Below, piece after piece: positions 4,745 to 35,251 of a stretch of DNA of 64,000 nt. A model generated the notes under the pieces. That model saw nothing but the letters and a program-made list of their open reading frames with translations. It had not been told where the DNA came from and did no database searches. The position numbers were made by a program, and so were the translations under genes. Source of the stretch: Candidatus Omnitrophota bacterium. Lineage in GTDB: Bacteria; Omnitrophota; Omnitrophia; Omnitrophales; JACQLI01. Every line of letters begins with the position of its first letter. The first letter of the stretch is position 1. The stretch is from contig JACPCP010000016.1 of assembly GCA_016179745.1 (NCBI GenBank), forward strand, positions 10,819 to 74,818, given 5' to 3'.

Positions 4745-5316
4745 AAAAGCTTGCCATTTTTGTCTCGGGGAACGGCACGAATATGGAAAACCTTCTCTGC
4801 CGAATCCGGGAAGGGAAGGTCCGGGCGGAGGCCTCGCTTGTCGTGAGCGACAACCCGGGGGCGTATGCCCTCGAGCGGGCGAAAAAATTCGGCGTCGAGT
4901 CGGTCGTGGTGGACCGGAAGAAATTCGATTCGAAGGAAAATTTTGAGGCCGAAATCCAACGTCGCCTGGCGGCGAAGAAAATTGATTACGTGATCCTGGC
5001 CGGTTTCATGCGGATCTTGAGCCCTTCCTTTGTGAGGGCCTACCGGGACCGCATTTTGAATATTCACCCGGCGCTCCTGCCGGATTTTCCGGGCGCCCAT
5101 GCCATTCAAGAGGCCTGGGAGGCGAAGGTCCGGAAGACGGGGGTCACGGTGCACTTTGTGGACGAGGGCGTGGACACGGGCCCTGTCATTCTCCAGCGAG
5201 AAGTTGCCGTCGAAGCGAATGACACGCTCGAGTCCCTCGAGAAAAAAATCCACGCTGTGGAATATGAAATTTATCCCGAGGCAATCAATCTTGTTTTGAA
5301 GGGCGAAGTAAAGTAA
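4741..5316 (+). CDS. purN: Phosphoribosylglycinamide formyltransferase
   Basis: 191 aa. KLAIFVSGNGTN, LAGFMRIL, NIHPALLP and VTVHFVDEGVDTGP motifs. ATGA overlap with rsmI. Confidence 0.9.
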   Translation: MKKLAIFVSGNGTNMENLLCRIREGKVRAEASLVVSDNPGAYALERAKKFGVESVVVDRKKFDSKENFEAEIQRRLAAKKIDYVILAGFMRILSPSFVRAYRDRILNIHPALLPDFPGAHAIQEAWEAKVRKTGVTVHFVDEGVDTGPVILQREVAVEANDTLESLEKKIHAVEYEIYPEAINLVLKGEVK

Positions 5317-12525: not shown

Positions 12526-12598
12526 GCCGGCGTAGCTCAGTTGGTAGAGCAGGGGACTCATAAGCCCCGCGTCGGGGGTTCGATTCCCTCCGCCGGCA
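12526..12598 (+). tRNA. tRNA with CAU anticodon (elongator Met most likely; Ile2-lysidine not excluded)
   Basis: 73-nt cloverleaf: GCCGGCG acceptor, CTCATAA anticodon loop, T-arm GGGGG-TTCGATT-CCCTC. CCA is not encoded. An A31/G39 mismatch is noted. Confidence 0.85.
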
Positions 12599-12621
12599 CT
12601 GTATTCTTTTAAGAAATAATT

Positions 12622-12741
12622 GAGAGGAATCGAAGGGAGCCCCGCACAATGCGACGTCAAGGAGCATTGGGTTTGCGGGGCGGGGGGCCGACCTGGAGCG
12701 AGCGTTAGCGAGCGAAAGGCGCCGATTCCCTCCGCCGGCAC
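12622..12741 (+). repeat. tRNA-3'-end-linked structured repeat, copy A (antisense T-arm segment, 97-nt core, and a 19-nt copy of the tRNA-Met 3' end)
   Basis: Core 12626-12722 is 95/97 identical to 34820-34916. CGATTCCCTCCGCCGGCAC occurs at both 12581-12599 and 12723-12741. Confidence 0.75.
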
Positions 12742-12758
12742 GTCTTATTAATCAAATC

Positions 12759-13769
12759 ATGCAAGCCTTACTCTCCCGAGTCGAAGCGGCCTCCGCCAAA
12801 TATCAAATGTTCAAACCGGGCGAGCGGGTCCTCGTGGCCTGTTCCGGCGGAGCAGATTCCGTTGCCCTGTTTCATCTTTTGAAAATCCTCTGCCCCCGCT
12901 TTAAAATTCGGCTCGCCCTTCTTCATTACGACCACGCCCTCCGCCCGGCGAGCTCCAGGGATTTTCAGTTTGTCAAAGTGCTTGCCCGGAAAACAAAGAC
13001 CCCTTTTTACGGTGGCGTGAGAGACCCGGAAAAAGGGATTCTGCGAAAAGGGCTTTCTCCCGAAGAGGCGGCCCGCAGCCTGCGATACGATTTTTTTAAA
13101 TCCGTCTGCCAAAAAACCGGGATCTCAAAAATTGCCCTGGGCCACCACCGGGATGACCAGGCCGAGACCGTGCTGATGCGGATCCTCCAGGGCACCGGCC
13201 CCCGGGGGCTCCAGGGGATCCGCCCTGTAGTCAAACTGAAAGGGATGACCCTGGTCCGGCCGCTCGTGGAAATCAGCCGCCAAGAGATTCGGGAAAGCTT
13301 GAGACGGAACCGTATCCGTTTCCGGGAAGACCGCTCCAACCGGTCCCGGAAATTTTTGAGGAACCGGATCCGTCAAAGGCTTCTTCCTTTGCTGGAAAAG
13401 GAGTTTAATCCCAAAATTCGCCAGTCCCTGTGCCGGCTGGCCGAAACCACAATGAGGGAATCAGCGGGTCTGGACGATTGGACCCGGCAGCACGGAAAAA
13501 GTTTCGTCCGCTTCCGGCGAAACGGGATCCTGACCCTGGCCCGAACCCCCTTCCTTTCCCTTCCGAGCGCCCTTCAGTTCCGGGTTCTCGACCGGCTCGT
13601 GCGTCTCCTTCACCCGGCGAGCGGGCTCAGTTTCGACGCCTGGAGCCGGATTGAACAGGGACTCGGTCGGGGCCGCTTTCGAACCACCCTTCCCCAGAGA
13701 CTGGATTTGATTCTCACCCCGAAAAAACTCACGATTTCCCGAACGTTTGCCGGTCGTGGGCGAAAATGA
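12759..13769 (+). CDS. tilS: tRNA(Ile)-lysidine synthase
   Basis: PP-loop VLVACSGGADSVAL, HHRDDQAETVLMR motif, tilS-ftsH synteny. Confidence 0.9.
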   Translation: MQALLSRVEAASAKYQMFKPGERVLVACSGGADSVALFHLLKILCPRFKIRLALLHYDHALRPASSRDFQFVKVLARKTKTPFYGGVRDPEKGILRKGLSPEEAARSLRYDFFKSVCQKTGISKIALGHHRDDQAETVLMRILQGTGPRGLQGIRPVVKLKGMTLVRPLVEISRQEIRESLRRNRIRFREDRSNRSRKFLRNRIRQRLLPLLEKEFNPKIRQSLCRLAETTMRESAGLDDWTRQHGKSFVRFRRNGILTLARTPFLSLPSALQFRVLDRLVRLLHPASGLSFDAWSRIEQGLGRGRFRTTLPQRLDLILTPKKLTISRTFAGRGRK

Positions 13770-23161: not shown

Positions 23162-23233
23162 GCTGGCGTAGCTCAATGGTAGAGCAACGGTTTTGTAAAC
23201 CGTGGGTTGGAGGTTCAACTCCTCTCGCCAGCT
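23162..23233 (+). tRNA. tRNA-Thr (UGU)
   Basis: 72-nt cloverleaf: GCTGGCG acceptor, anticodon loop TTTGTAA, T-arm GGAGG-TTCAACT-CCTCT. Confidence 0.9.
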
Positions 23234-23263
23234 AAAATGCAATTAAGAATTAATTGATTTTAC

Positions 23264-23346
23264 GGGGAGTTTCCCAAGTGGACAAAGGGGCCAGACTGTA
23301 AATCTGGTGGCTCACGCCTTCAGAGGTTCGAATCCTCTACTCCCCA
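23264..23346 (+). tRNA. tRNA-Tyr (GUA)
   Basis: 83-nt class II tRNA: GGGGAGT acceptor, anticodon loop CTGTAAA, long variable arm. Confidence 0.9.
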
Positions 23347-34645: not shown

Positions 34646-34727
34646 AAAAGGTGCTCATTATAAGGTGTGGCAGAAAAGTTGCCAGATAAAATTTAAATTT
34701 AGTATACTCCCAACGTCTTTCCAGCCT

Positions 34728-34798
34728 GCGGCTGTTGCATAGTGGTAATGCCCGAGCCTTCCAAGCTCGAGTCGAGGGTTCGATTCCCTCCAGCCGCT
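34728..34798 (+). tRNA. tRNA-Gly (UCC)
   Basis: 71-nt cloverleaf: GCGGCTG acceptor, anticodon loop CTTCCAA, T-arm GAGGG-TTCGATT-CCCTC. Confidence 0.9.
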
Positions 34799-34815
34799 AA
34801 TTCCTGATCTGGACT

Positions 34816-34934
34816 GGAGGGAATCGAAGGGAGCCCCGCACAATGCGACGTGAAGGAGCATTGGGTCTGCGGGGCGGGGGGCCGACCTGGAGCGAGCGTT
34901 AGCGAGCGAAAGGCGCCGATTCCCTCCAGCCGCT
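34816..34934 (+). repeat. tRNA-3'-end-linked structured repeat, copy B (13-nt antisense T-arm segment, 97-nt core, and an 18-nt copy of the tRNA-Gly 3' end)
   Basis: GGAGGGAATCGAA (34816-34828) is the exact reverse complement of the tRNA's TTCGATTCCCTCC. CGATTCCCTCCAGCCGCT occurs at both 34781-34798 and 34917-34934. Confidence 0.75.
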
Positions 34935-34970
34935 CATTCTTTTTCAGCCGAGCGGGGACTCAAAAAGGGC

Positions 34971-34998
34971 TTGACATCCAAAAAAGCATCTGTAGAAT
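34971..34998 (+). promoter_or_regulatory. Sigma-70-like promoter for tRNA-Thr and tuf (TTGACA, 16 nt, TAGAAT)
   Basis: -35 at 34971-34976 and -10 at 34993-34998, about 130 nt upstream of tRNA-Thr(GGU). Confidence 0.45.
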
Positions 34999-35017
34999 CA
35001 TTCAACTTTTAACAGGA

Positions 35018-35044
35018 GAAGACTGTCCCAGAGGGACTGTCTTC
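35018..35044 (+). promoter_or_regulatory. 12-bp hairpin or palindrome just downstream of the promoter
   Basis: GAAGACTGTCCC-AGA-GGGACTGTCTTC (one T/T mismatch). No U-tract follows, so it may be an operator or a 5' stabilising stem. Confidence 0.3.
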
Positions 35045-35127
35045 CTATCCCTAGTATTTTAAGAGAGGTTGTCTTATTTCATAAAGAGGCCCGGCATCAA
35101 GCGTAACACGAAGTTGCGCTCTGACGG

Positions 35128-35200
35128 GCTGCTGTAGCTCAGACGGTAGAGCACGTCCTTGGTAAGGACGGGGTCCCCGGTTCAATTCCGGGCAGCAGCT
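35128..35200 (+). tRNA. tRNA-Thr (GGU)
   Basis: 73-nt cloverleaf: GCTGCTG acceptor and anticodon loop TTGGTAA. Classical position upstream of tuf. Confidence 0.9.
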
Positions 35201-35251
35201 GAAGCGGGCCGTGACAAGGCAAGAACCCAGAACCTAGAAAGAGAGGCACCC

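Follow-up and report, generated by a model that had tools for sequence, protein, structure and literature searches.

A candidate family of protein-less structured RNA elements appended to the 3' ends of tRNA genes in Candidatus Omnitrophota

Direct repeats that run from the T-loop to the 3' end of a tRNA are the classic signature of islands that integrate into tRNA genes. Casposons duplicate 14–15 bp at tRNA 3' ends, and a unit of ∼125 bp is too small to circularise as duplex DNA. The T-loop-to-3'-end repeat of tRNA-integrating islands is also described in PMC9897764, and a preprint gives the T-loop of tmRNA as a known site of a group I intron (bioRxiv 10.1101/2020.01.27.920355). In the window, a stretch of 64,000 nucleotides from a Candidatus Omnitrophota contig, two tRNA genes are followed by repeats of their own 3' ends. 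Sequence comparisons indicate that these two loci are members of a family of protein-less structured RNAs that form 3' appendages of tRNA genes and are widespread in Candidatus Omnitrophota. We see about an even chance that the family consists of structured RNA elements, encoding no protein, that are co-transcribed with tRNAs and spread among tRNA 3' ends.

At the first locus, a tRNA-Met(CAT) gene without an encoded CCA lies directly 5' of tilS (table 1). An exact direct repeat of 19 nt, CGATTCCCTCCGCCGGCAC, occurs twice (12581–12599 and 12723–12741), first as X1, part of the working tRNA, and then as X2 at the end of the element. Repeat comparison thereby bore out the terminal copy of the tRNA 3' end reported in the first-pass annotation, with all of its coordinates and sequences. 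The spacer between X1 and the element is weakly similar to the native flank between the tRNA gene and tilS and is probably an old, diverged duplicate of it; in locus L080 (an ortholog of the Met locus; family loci are cited by L numbers), the spacer clearly duplicates the native flank. Within the anti-T-arm segment, GGAATCGAA (9 nt, 12626–12634) is the reverse complement of tRNA-Met nt 54–62 and 100% complementary to TTCGATTCC (12579–12587), and the GAGA extension matches the ancestral T-stem (CCTCT), not the present one. The complementarity of this segment had been recognized before, but its assignment to the constant core does not hold because it is host-specific. Together with the first 7 nt of X2 it forms P1, and within the element the acceptor 3' strand stays single-stranded.

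Table 1. Coordinates of features at the two tRNA-linked loci, numbered along the window.
Feature	Position	Strand	Basis
Host tRNA-Met(CAT) gene	12526..12598 (end 12598/9)	+	ARAGORN, Rfam tRNA matches
X1, proximal direct-repeat copy (tRNA nt 56-73 + one base)	12581..12599	+	exact 19-nt repeat
Locus-specific spacer	12600..12621	+	weak similarity to flank after X2
Anti-T-arm segment GAGAGGAATCGAA	12622..12634	+	complementarity, ortholog comparison
Conserved core, Met copy	12635..12722	+	RNAalifold, per-sequence folds, pair counts
J1/2, GGGAG	12635-12639	+	folds of Met core
P2 hairpin	12640-12680	+	folds of Met core
J2/3, CGGGG	12681-12685	+	folds of Met core
P3: GGCCGACC, hairpin, GGCGC	12686-12693, 12694-12717, 12718-12722	+	folds of Met core
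X2, distal copy of tRNA nt 56-73 + one base	12723..12741	+	exact repeat of X1
Promoter-like site TTGCCA-18-TATACT, 5' of tRNA-Gly	34679..34708	+	consensus match only
Host tRNA-Gly(TCC); X1 at 34781-34798	34728..34798	+	tRNA calling, repeat comparison
Anti-T-arm segment CTGGAGGGAATCGAA, 15 nt	34814..34828	+	perfect reverse complement, tRNA-Gly nt 54-68
Conserved core, second copy	34829..34916	+	95/97 identical to Met copy, counted from 34820
X2 of Gly locus (tRNA-Gly nt 56-73, 18 nt)	34917..34934	+	repeat comparison
Degenerate spacer and anti-T-arm copy, a truncated second unit	34935..34964	+	48-nt direct repeat, 73% identity
Strong promoter-like site for tRNA-Thr/tuf, after truncated second unit	34971-34998	+	consensus match

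The same core stands behind tRNA-Gly, as the first-pass annotation had also observed, with differences at 2 of 97 positions and a terminal copy that is the Gly tRNA's own end. Here CTGGAGGGAATCGAA pairs perfectly with either copy of the tRNA-Gly end, and the repeat does not stop at the tRNA end but goes on as a copy (48 nt, 73% identity) that takes in spacer and antisense segment. A 27-mer of the core occurs twice in the window (0 expected from 100 shuffles), and a covariance model of the family recovers two copies only. The remaining four tRNAs of the window differ in their T-loops (TTCAACTCC, TTCGAATCC, TTCAATTCC, TTCGACTCC) and carry no element, in agreement with the earlier reading.

The searches recovered ∼60 copies of the family on ∼50 metagenome contigs, which derive mostly from Candidatus Omnitrophota, with one MAG labelled Planctomycetia. 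A pattern scan of metagenomes returned 72 loci, ∼45 of which are true members and ∼25 chance matches. A 20-mer scan of a genome collection returned three matches; one, from a MAG, is a diverged copy in which P2 carries compensatory changes, and two were dismissed as chance matches inside coding DNA. Each copy with readable upstream sequence is 10–130 nt (265 nt in L004) 3' of a tRNA on the same strand or of a tRNA 3' fragment (fragment only in L017 and L034), and the check for cores at sites lacking a tRNA, proposed at the outset, turned up none. Host tRNAs are Gly, Thr, Met, Lys, Arg, Leu, Phe, Val, Glu, Tyr, and Trp. The unit of ∼95–125 nt begins with a 5' guide, reverse-complementary to host tRNA nt 54 to ∼66 (T-loop and 3' strand of the T-stem), continues with the three-way-junction core, and closes with a repeat of the host tRNA from C56. 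One public contig starts exactly at the core.

Helices of the three-way junction are paired in 93% of cells, and 12 of 21 pairs show double-sided changes; none of 500 shuffles reaches the observed value, and slid controls give 38–48%. P2 folds in every member (mean z −3.6), and P3 shows one G-C/C-G flip at a base that is otherwise invariant, although invariance across the family is partly an ascertainment effect because the search patterns fixed parts of the motif. Covariation of RNA type, G-U pairs, and purine internal loops recur in the core across the phylum. The extended hairpin and enclosing outer stem proposed in the first-pass annotation are both real and both covary. Its tandem AGCGAGCG-TT-AGCGAGCG is correct as sequence but is in fact the two arms of hairpin P3, with Watson–Crick steps split by G/A internal loops. 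In predicted minimum-energy folds of the whole transcript, the guide pairs with the tRNA itself instead. A search of element and leader for a partner of the acceptor 3' strand found none, and the idea that J1/2 bases track the host acceptor was rejected because one host sequence is found with different J1/2. CUGAUGA in the L080 leader was considered as a hammerhead-like motif and likewise rejected, since other members lack it and the core does not suit a hammerhead.

The ends follow the host tRNA while the core stays constant, as had been proposed from the window, and this pattern extends to ∼40 further loci at which both repeats match the local tRNA. Guide (GGAATCGAA, GGATTCGAA, GGGCTCGAA, GGACTTGAA) and terminal repeat switch jointly with the host T-loop (TTCGATTCC, TTCGAATCC, TTCGAGCCC, TTCAAGTCC), and in L007 even the two bases opposite nt 54–55 are altered along with the tRNA. 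The junction between element and repeat falls exactly at C56 in all copies, with repeat lengths from C56 of 7, 9, 10, 18–24, 28–35, 54–63, or 92 nt, or reaching into a further unit. Two DNA-based explanations can be weighed on these grounds. The repeats could be attL/attR cores of a T-loop island deleted to ∼100 bp, or the element could be a tiny one mobilised in trans by an integrase; its repeat has the island signature, the L036/L047 lineage has a tyrosine integrase gene immediately upstream of its host tRNA, and L017 and L034 have partial tRNAs. Conservative recombination, however, cannot account for two repeats that are both host-specific at different tRNAs, native flank is part of the repeat in L080, a single core shows the RNA-type features described above across the phylum, integrases are not recurrent near the 50 loci compared, and units of ∼125 bp are below the size of duplex DNA circles. 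This explanation is largely refuted, and we give it next to no credence. That the element is a MITE derived from an ordinary DNA transposon (terminal inverted repeats GGAATCG...CGATTCC, long target-site duplication, movement by a transposase or Cas1-like integrase encoded elsewhere) is very improbable: the supposed terminal inverted repeat switches with the host T-loop, duplication length varies from 7 to 92 nt or beyond, all copies found sit next to a tRNA, and compensatory evolution of internal hairpins suggests selection on a single-stranded fold, even though the inverted-repeat outer stem with flanking direct repeats, the empty sites in relatives, and the precedent of casposons are what a MITE would offer. 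Comparison across the family supports the earlier opinion that the element is neither a classic IS or MITE nor an integrase att scar.

The first-pass annotation had suggested looking for empty sites in relatives, and three were found. In L077, L078, and L079, which share synteny with the window, the tRNA-Met/tilS site is empty; in L080 (TilS 86% identical) it is occupied, and a 35-nt repeat takes in native flank. These sites and this duplication agree with the explanation, offered first in that annotation, that the element targets the T-arm and duplicates its target. Across the family, the duplication is not a fixed ∼19 bp. Boundaries of the repeat and leader in L012/L062 are unlike those in the window and L080, which points to independent insertions at one tRNA. 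Tandem arrays and truncated last units are common in the family, truncations sit on the 3' side of the last unit, and the set of host tRNAs varies between genomes. The Met copy of the window shares its guide extension with L080 and its core with the Gly copy. Because it keeps this ancestral L080-like extension next to a core that matches the Gly copy, the near-identity of the two window copies, correctly noted before, is more likely to reflect gene conversion than fresh transposition. If so, the 13-mer shared by the two host tRNAs may be partly a consequence, not a cause, of the element.

Evolution in place bears on what the element does. Among five orthologous Gly(TCC) loci, core identity is 80%, against a background level of 45–58% in flanks and spacer. 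Conservation of the core at fixed orthologous loci is the pattern of an ncRNA that serves the host and is unusual for a purely selfish non-autonomous repeat. It is possible, and we hold this tentatively, that the element is a small RNA in the service of the host, not a selfish one, and matures out of the tRNA precursor like a 3' external transcribed spacer. It would use the strong tRNA promoter, be freed by tRNA 3' processing, and bind a protein or ligand or steer tRNA folding and maturation by switching the guide between T-arm and repeat, with its spread among tRNAs a slow by-product of recombination. The slow core with its compensatory changes, highly conserved junction bases of the kind seen in aptamers and ribozymes, co-evolution of the terminal repeat with the tRNA, a guide able to pair with the tRNA in a way that the predicted whole-transcript folds use, and a tRNA-Gly and element that form their own promoter-bounded unit are consistent with this role, but its presence varies (tRNA-Met is empty in the three relatives and occupied elsewhere), the host tRNA set is unlike between genomes, and arrays, truncated units, and terminal repeats mismatched to the tRNA (L010, L046, L053, L061) resemble the dynamics of a repeat, not those of a fixed gene. 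The second explanation of the first-pass annotation, a structured RNA from the tRNA precursor, is in keeping both with how the promoters are arranged and with selection acting on the fold.

For an RNA element that spreads among tRNA 3' ends, the reading we prefer, the following course is suggested. By consensus match, a promoter-like site precedes tRNA-Gly and the next such site is only past the element; the tRNA promoter would drive a transcript that contains both tRNA and module. The guide is predicted to pair with the repeated tRNA end (P1) and close the junction, from which the acceptor 3' strand would protrude as a tail. New copies would be made by copy-and-paste anchored through base pairing with the T-arm, and this anchoring would fix one junction between U55 and C56 and duplicate the target from C56 over a variable distance. 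Target-primed copying of the element RNA is one conceivable route, replicative template switching another. Arrays would grow and shrink via unequal exchange between repeats, and gene conversion would homogenise cores within a genome, giving 95/97 identity alongside locus-specific ends. The fold would be maintained by in-place selection, like that of an intron- or ribozyme-like passenger that needs correct RNA folding. Truncation on the 3' side is the opposite of classical target-primed reverse transcription.

Maintenance of the terminal repeat is a separate matter. In the window, the repeat has followed four substitutions of the tRNA, and it is still identical to the tRNA where the adjoining duplicated flank appears diverged. 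Identity of this kind needs selection or frequent conversion, and the best model leaves its mechanism unexplained. The T-stem of tRNA-Met in the window is now that of tRNA-Gly, the other host. In L012 and L037, CCA follows the distal repeat and is absent after the proximal one; this may mark an RNA-derived copy, or native genes may simply encode CCA. A primer-binding-site idea, in which the minus strand is complementary to the mature tRNA 3' end, was rejected: where the gene does not encode CCA, the repeat has none either.

Readings that give the RNA an activity of its own would also draw on the guide and its junction. A new class of self-guided RNA element, built on a small catalytic or ligand-binding three-way junction, is unlikely but deserves some weight; it would either find its way to tRNA 3' ends while encoding no protein or act by cleavage and ligation between U55 and C56. 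Its 5' guide would read the T-arm in the tRNA gene or transcript and exchange or gate the tRNA 3' end, as a minimal "tRNA-tail-swapping" ribozyme or as a riboswitch on tRNA maturation. We regard as quite improbable an intron-like element, or small ribozyme, in which the 3' exon is present twice and the guide works like the internal guide sequence of group I introns. The guide would pair across the U55–C56 junction (P1-like) or alternatively with the repeated segment from C56 (P10-like), and the core would cleave and ligate two equivalent junctions, splice out or swap the tRNA 3' end, or release a unit-length or circular RNA. Complementarity of the guide to the uninterrupted nt 54–55 and 56–66 (with the L007 bases changed along with the tRNA), the constant junction at C56, invariant junction bases, in-place selection on the fold, and the known T-loop site of a group I intron in tmRNA suit this idea; against these, the proximal copy always yields an intact tRNA, so that splicing is not needed, and the distal copy is sometimes truncated, the proximal copy never where the tRNA gene is complete (unlike L017 and L034, with the 3' fragment only). 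U-G wobble and terminal G are absent, the core of ∼90 nt is far below the size of any group I or II intron, and no ribozyme family matches.

Database searches returned no relatives from the collections used. Rfam 15 yielded no family at gathering or permissive thresholds: the whole window gave tRNA matches only, and permissive searches gave nothing meaningful for the element (to E=10) or for 8 further members (to E=1); a weak permuted-tmRNA match (E=3.7) was judged noise. The phage collection gave no match either, nor did a viral contig scan; a known RNA family and a phage att region had both been raised as checks in the first-pass annotation. The single match in a plasmid collection, 33 nt inside an MFS transporter gene, was set aside as chance. 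Clustering of genes around 50 loci yielded housekeeping families only, and no recurrent reverse transcriptase, transposase, or integrase and no cas1 were seen among the larger families, which were checked by eye. The 11 kb of the window from tRNA-Tyr to tRNA-Gly hold ordinary metabolic genes and no reverse transcriptase, transposase, or Cas1. Full-text literature searches found no description of this architecture. With no match to a catalogued RNA or mobile element, this is therefore probably a new kind of tRNA-linked genetic element.

If this reading is true, the family is an uncatalogued, phylum-wide structured RNA in which a core is framed by antisense and sense copies of the 3' third of a tRNA. 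It would be a testable candidate for a ribozyme or aptamer of a new kind, or for a protein-less mobile RNA whose guide can be re-targeted. The identity of the Met and Gly T-stems suggests that the element may pass sequence between tRNA genes, a possible route of tRNA gene evolution. Its repeats break assemblies, create partial tRNA sequences that annotation may misread, and mimic integrase att sites.

Several described systems share parts of this architecture. Among RNAs released from tRNA transcripts, those of the 3'ETS-leuZ type (E. coli) also lie directly after a tRNA and, probably like the element, in the same transcript; they are short, locus-specific, and unrepeated, whereas the element is multi-copy, phylum-wide, and structured, with tRNA-derived ends and arrays. 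A short host-complementary segment at the insertion junction that changes with the host is common to the element, the group I internal guide sequence (P1/P10), and group II EBS/IBS. Unlike self-splicing introns, the element has a core of ∼90 nt without defining intron helices or splice-site bases and leaves the host tRNA uninterrupted; its junctions, between U55 and C56 and between ...GGCGC and C56, differ from those of group I introns, and Intron_gpI does not match. The omega RNAs of TnpB/IscB, which lie beside the nuclease gene at an end of IS200/IS605-type elements, likewise have a conserved scaffold followed by ∼18–20 nt of 3' end equal to local host DNA. In the element, however, there is no adjacent nuclease gene or IS end, the first 7–13 "guide" nt are paired internally, and the host sequence is duplicated, not merely flanking. 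As in retron ncRNAs, inverted repeats close the RNA with a stem, but where a retron would have its reverse transcriptase gene immediately downstream, the element is followed by tilS, tRNAs, and tuf.

Among DNA elements, MITEs and ISs are expected to have family-constant terminal inverted repeats and short, fixed target-site duplications, which the element lacks, and MITE/REP sequences to scatter regardless of neighboring genes, whereas the element follows a tRNA or its 3' fragment. Casposon or Cas1 activity predicts a fixed 14–15 bp duplication, terminal inverted repeats, and cas1; the element's duplication is variable and longer. An att scar should have a proximal repeat whose tRNA-distal part is element-borne and constant, and the Met, Gly, and ∼40 other loci differ from this. 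Islands and prophages that target tRNAs resemble the element in a repeat from T-loop to tRNA 3' end, an intact tRNA, and a 3'-end target, but the element has no integrase or cargo, only 100–125 nt between repeats, and an interior that is a covarying RNA-type fold, and its two repeats are host-derived at different tRNAs, variable in length, and may include native flank. In contrast to non-LTR elements and SINEs, the element is bacterial, has no A-tail, shows 3'-side and not 5' truncation, and targets base C56 of tRNA genes, and no reverse transcriptase was seen in its neighborhoods. Like them it is non-autonomous and structured with a variable target duplication, and the duplication starts with sequence also present at the 3' end of the element, a microhomology like that of poly-A with T-rich targets.

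The two element copies in the window share an organization in which a conserved core lies between a 5' guide, antisense to the T-arm of the host tRNA, and a terminal copy of that tRNA's end. As the first-pass annotation described, the repeat of the tRNA end and the T-arm antisense segment are exact at the Met locus, and a nearly identical core lies behind tRNA-Gly(TCC) and closes with the 3' tail of that tRNA. There, the antisense stretch spans 15 nt and is a perfect match to tRNA-Gly nt 54-68, and the 18-nt copy is followed by a remnant of spacer and guide at 73% identity. A 27-mer from the core occurs twice in the window (none expected), and the family covariance model finds no third copy. 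The window's four other tRNAs have different T-loops and no element attached, in agreement with the restriction to two tRNAs previously noted.

Features of the two element copies, in window coordinates
Feature	Position	Remark
tRNA(CAT) gene	12526-12598	host at the Met locus
Direct repeat CGATTCCCTCCGCCGGCAC (tRNA(CAT) 3' end including one trailing base, 19 nt)	12581-12599 and 12723-12741	exact
Antisense segment GGAATCGAA	12626-12634	perfect complement of T-loop segment TTCGATTCC
tRNA-Gly(TCC)	34728-34798	host at the Gly locus
Second core copy	34820-34916	two differences from the Met-locus core; closes with tRNA-Gly's own 18-nt tail

The element belongs to a family that extends beyond the window. 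Scanning one genome per species with a 20-mer turned up a single diverged copy, in a MAG labelled Planctomycetia, in which the inner stem of the first hairpin is altered on both sides (CAATGC/GCATTG to GGAGGC/GCCTCC) and junction sequences are retained. In metagenome contigs, a three-block pattern scan identified 72 loci versus ~8 expected by chance (our estimate), with ~45 true members, and the covariance model added more diverged copies for a total of 61 matches at E<=1e-4. Proteins adjoining several loci, and relatives of the window TilS, have source labels of Candidatus Omnitrophota. The element has no match in Rfam 15 at any threshold tried, nor in a phage collection, and its sole match in a plasmid collection is 33 nt and due to chance. 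A full-text search of an incomplete literature library found no published description of this architecture, which is absence of evidence.

Every member with readable upstream sequence is 10-130 nt (265 nt in L004; L-numbers denote contigs or loci compared with the window) 3' of a tRNA gene, or of a tRNA 3' fragment, on the same strand, and none is at the non-tRNA sites that the first-pass annotation considered incompatible with its description. Hosts are Gly-TCC/CCC/GCC, Thr-TGT/GGT, Met, Lys, Arg, Leu, Phe, Val, Glu, Tyr, and Trp. In all members linked to tRNAs, the terminal copy begins at T-loop C56. The guide spans the 55|56 junction, which suggests a ribozyme or intron-like element, a reading that we consider improbable. 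Host T-loops TTCGAATCC, TTCGAGCCC, and TTCAAGTCC are accompanied by antisense segments GGATTCGAA, GGGCTCGAA, and GGACTTGAA, respectively, and the terminal copy changes likewise. In L007, the host tRNA-Tyr has GGTGCGAATCC and the guide bases opposite nt 54-55 are also changed, from AA to CG, and the only possible partner of these two bases is the tRNA, not the distal copy. Locus-specific pairing past the constant 7 bp averages 2.2 extra pairs versus 1.2 with swapped partners. Because antisense segment and terminal copy follow the host, the conserved part is just G.GAG...GGCGC, and both framing segments are host-derived or host-matched.

Some loci deviate in what precedes the element. In L004 (567-800), tRNA-Gly(CCC) and the element are separated by ~230 nt of GC-rich sequence with ...GTCGATTCCCACTGCAGCACGCC at its end, which resembles the 3' end of some other tRNA. 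In L017 (reverse strand) and L034 (3702-3797), the element is behind the 3' part of a tRNA-Gly missing its 5' acceptor strand and D-arm, an arrangement that upstream island integration would produce.

Both RNAalifold and an explicit count of pairs indicate a three-way junction. P1 pairs the 5' antisense segment with the start of the terminal tRNA copy, and P2, variable in sequence, is a long hairpin that folds in every member (mean z -3.6). P3 opens with an invariant GGCCGACC/GGCGCC pairing, although some invariance of bases is ascertainment since the search patterns fixed parts of the motif, and continues as a rod with symmetric G/A internal loops between short Watson-Crick steps. The AGCGAGCG previously described as tandem is present, but it is simply both arms of P3. 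Across 59 distinct sequences, standard pairs account for 93% of cells and 12 of 21 pairs have changes on both sides; observed pairing values were reached by 0 of 500 shuffles, and slid controls gave 38-48%. In one lineage, the pair of an otherwise invariant P3 base is flipped (GAC-C...G-GCGCC to GAG-C...G-CCGCC). Judging by the purine-rich loops and G-U pairs, the folded strand is probably the plus strand, the one predicted to be transcribed together with the tRNA. L036 and L055 have an identical atypical P3 (CGCCATTGTTTCTGTGGCG) despite different P2 hairpins and host tRNAs, which suggests modular exchange among copies.

Among five related species with the element at orthologous tRNA-Gly(TCC) genes, mean pairwise identity is 97% in the tRNA and 80% in the core, compared to 45% upstream, 58% in the spacer, and 49% downstream. 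Together with compensatory changes in P2 and P3 at these loci, this indicates that the fold is maintained in place, which is not expected for a decaying repeat. It speaks for an RNA that has to fold, be it to serve the host or to coexist harmlessly with its tRNA. Such conservation favors the main rival reading, an RNA that serves the host and is processed out of the tRNA precursor, and the patchy, array-prone distribution speaks against it; we consider this reading possible but rather unlikely.

Empty sites, which the first-pass annotation proposed looking for, are present in Omnitrophota relatives L077, L078, and L079, where GH57/tRNA-Met/tilS/ftsH synteny is conserved, the element is absent, and the tilS start codon is 6-8 nt after the tRNA. 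A closer relative, L080 (TilS 86% identical), has the element with a 35-nt repeat, ~17 nt of which is native flanking sequence that takes in the tilS start region; the spacer is therefore at least partly duplicated target. In L012 and L062, this tRNA-Met is also occupied; the repeat there is 18 nt and the element brings a different 5' hairpin, which indicates insertions independent of the window/L080 type. In the window (12526-13769), as in Omnitrophota relatives, the tRNA with anticodon CAT is directly 5' of tilS (tRNA-Ile lysidine synthetase) and may be lysidine-modified tRNA-Ile2, TilS's own substrate, rather than tRNA-Met.

Across loci, the sequence past the last complete core is most commonly 18-24 nt, ending at the discriminator or encoded CCA, within a length continuum (7-10, 28-35, 54-63, 92 nt, or a further unit). 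Further units, where last, are cut within the guide, P2, J2/3, or P3, and several contigs carry tandem arrays of identical ~125-nt units. In a few copies (L010/L076, L046, L053, and L061), the terminal segment mismatches the local tRNA, which is best explained by secondary deletion or recombination among copies. L023 and L038 have a perfect 19-nt palindrome, CTGCCTGCCGGCAGGCAGG, within the distal tRNA copy, directly after CGATTCC and just past the core. In L018 (reverse strand, 4814-4945 and after the distal repeat), an unrelated ~85-nt repeat (gtcatcctatag...gtcagt) follows both tRNA-Met-end copies, with GCCGCCAT duplicated, and may be another small element targeting the tRNA 3' end. L015 (reverse strand, ~560-1400; tRNA 5' fragment gcccgcatagctcagttgatagaa), L041, L007 (13636-14210), and L050 have, between a tRNA 5' fragment and a complete tRNA gene, an ORF of ~190-260 aa that lacks a Pfam match, apparently another kind of tRNA-associated insertion, in this case one duplicating the 5' part of the tRNA.

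The window Met copy and its L080 ortholog share the guide extension TGAGAGGAATCG, which fits the T-stem CCTCT (L077-L080, L012, L018, and L062), not the window's current CCCTC; CCTCT is ancestral and CCCTC is derived. The window Met core, however, is 95/97 identical to the Gly core and unlike that of L080 throughout P2, consistent with an old insertion whose core was homogenized with the Gly copy. Conversion at the Met locus would have been limited to the homologous stretch. All four substitutions separating the window tRNA-Met from its ancestral form are also in the distal copy, and the derived T-stem equals that of tRNA-Gly, so the shared 13-mer may partly have arisen by exchange through the element. 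L001 (SRR12113418_280728), which alone among public contigs encodes exactly the window's TilS, starts at base one of the repeat core, and its first 104 bases have Gly-type variants at both variable positions; the repeat likely broke or chimerized this assembly.

At the Gly locus, the tRNA has a promoter-like site in front of it and the distal copy is followed by a T-run; the next promoter-like site (TTGACA-16-TAGAAT), after the element and in front of tRNA-Thr/tuf, is predicted to serve those genes. The usually contiguous tRNA cluster Thr-Tyr-Gly-Thr-tuf is split in the window into two parts (23162-23346 and 34728-35201), and the 11 kb between them holds ordinary genes (LptF/G, GlgC-like, PAD_porph-family deiminase, amino-acid permease, LacI-type binding protein, and histidine phosphatase). 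When all ORFs around 50 loci were clustered, neighbors were housekeeping genes only; no reverse transcriptase, transposase, or Cas1 recurred. In one lineage only (L036, 2042-3160, and L047), a tyrosine integrase gene (PF00589) ends ~20 nt upstream of a tRNA-Thr(TGT) bearing an element array. An ordinary MITE and an integrase scar, both doubted from the outset, failed their defining tests.

The reading that we rank first, with about even confidence, is a structured RNA module, encoding no protein, that shares its transcript with tRNAs and spreads from one tRNA 3' end to another. Such a module would be copied and pasted with the T-arm as anchor, after which array dynamics and gene conversion would act on the copies. 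Candidate insertion routes are target-primed copying and replicative template switching, either of which fits the fixed C56 junction, the microhomology, and the variable duplication; the 3'-sided truncations of the element do not fit classical target-primed reverse transcription.
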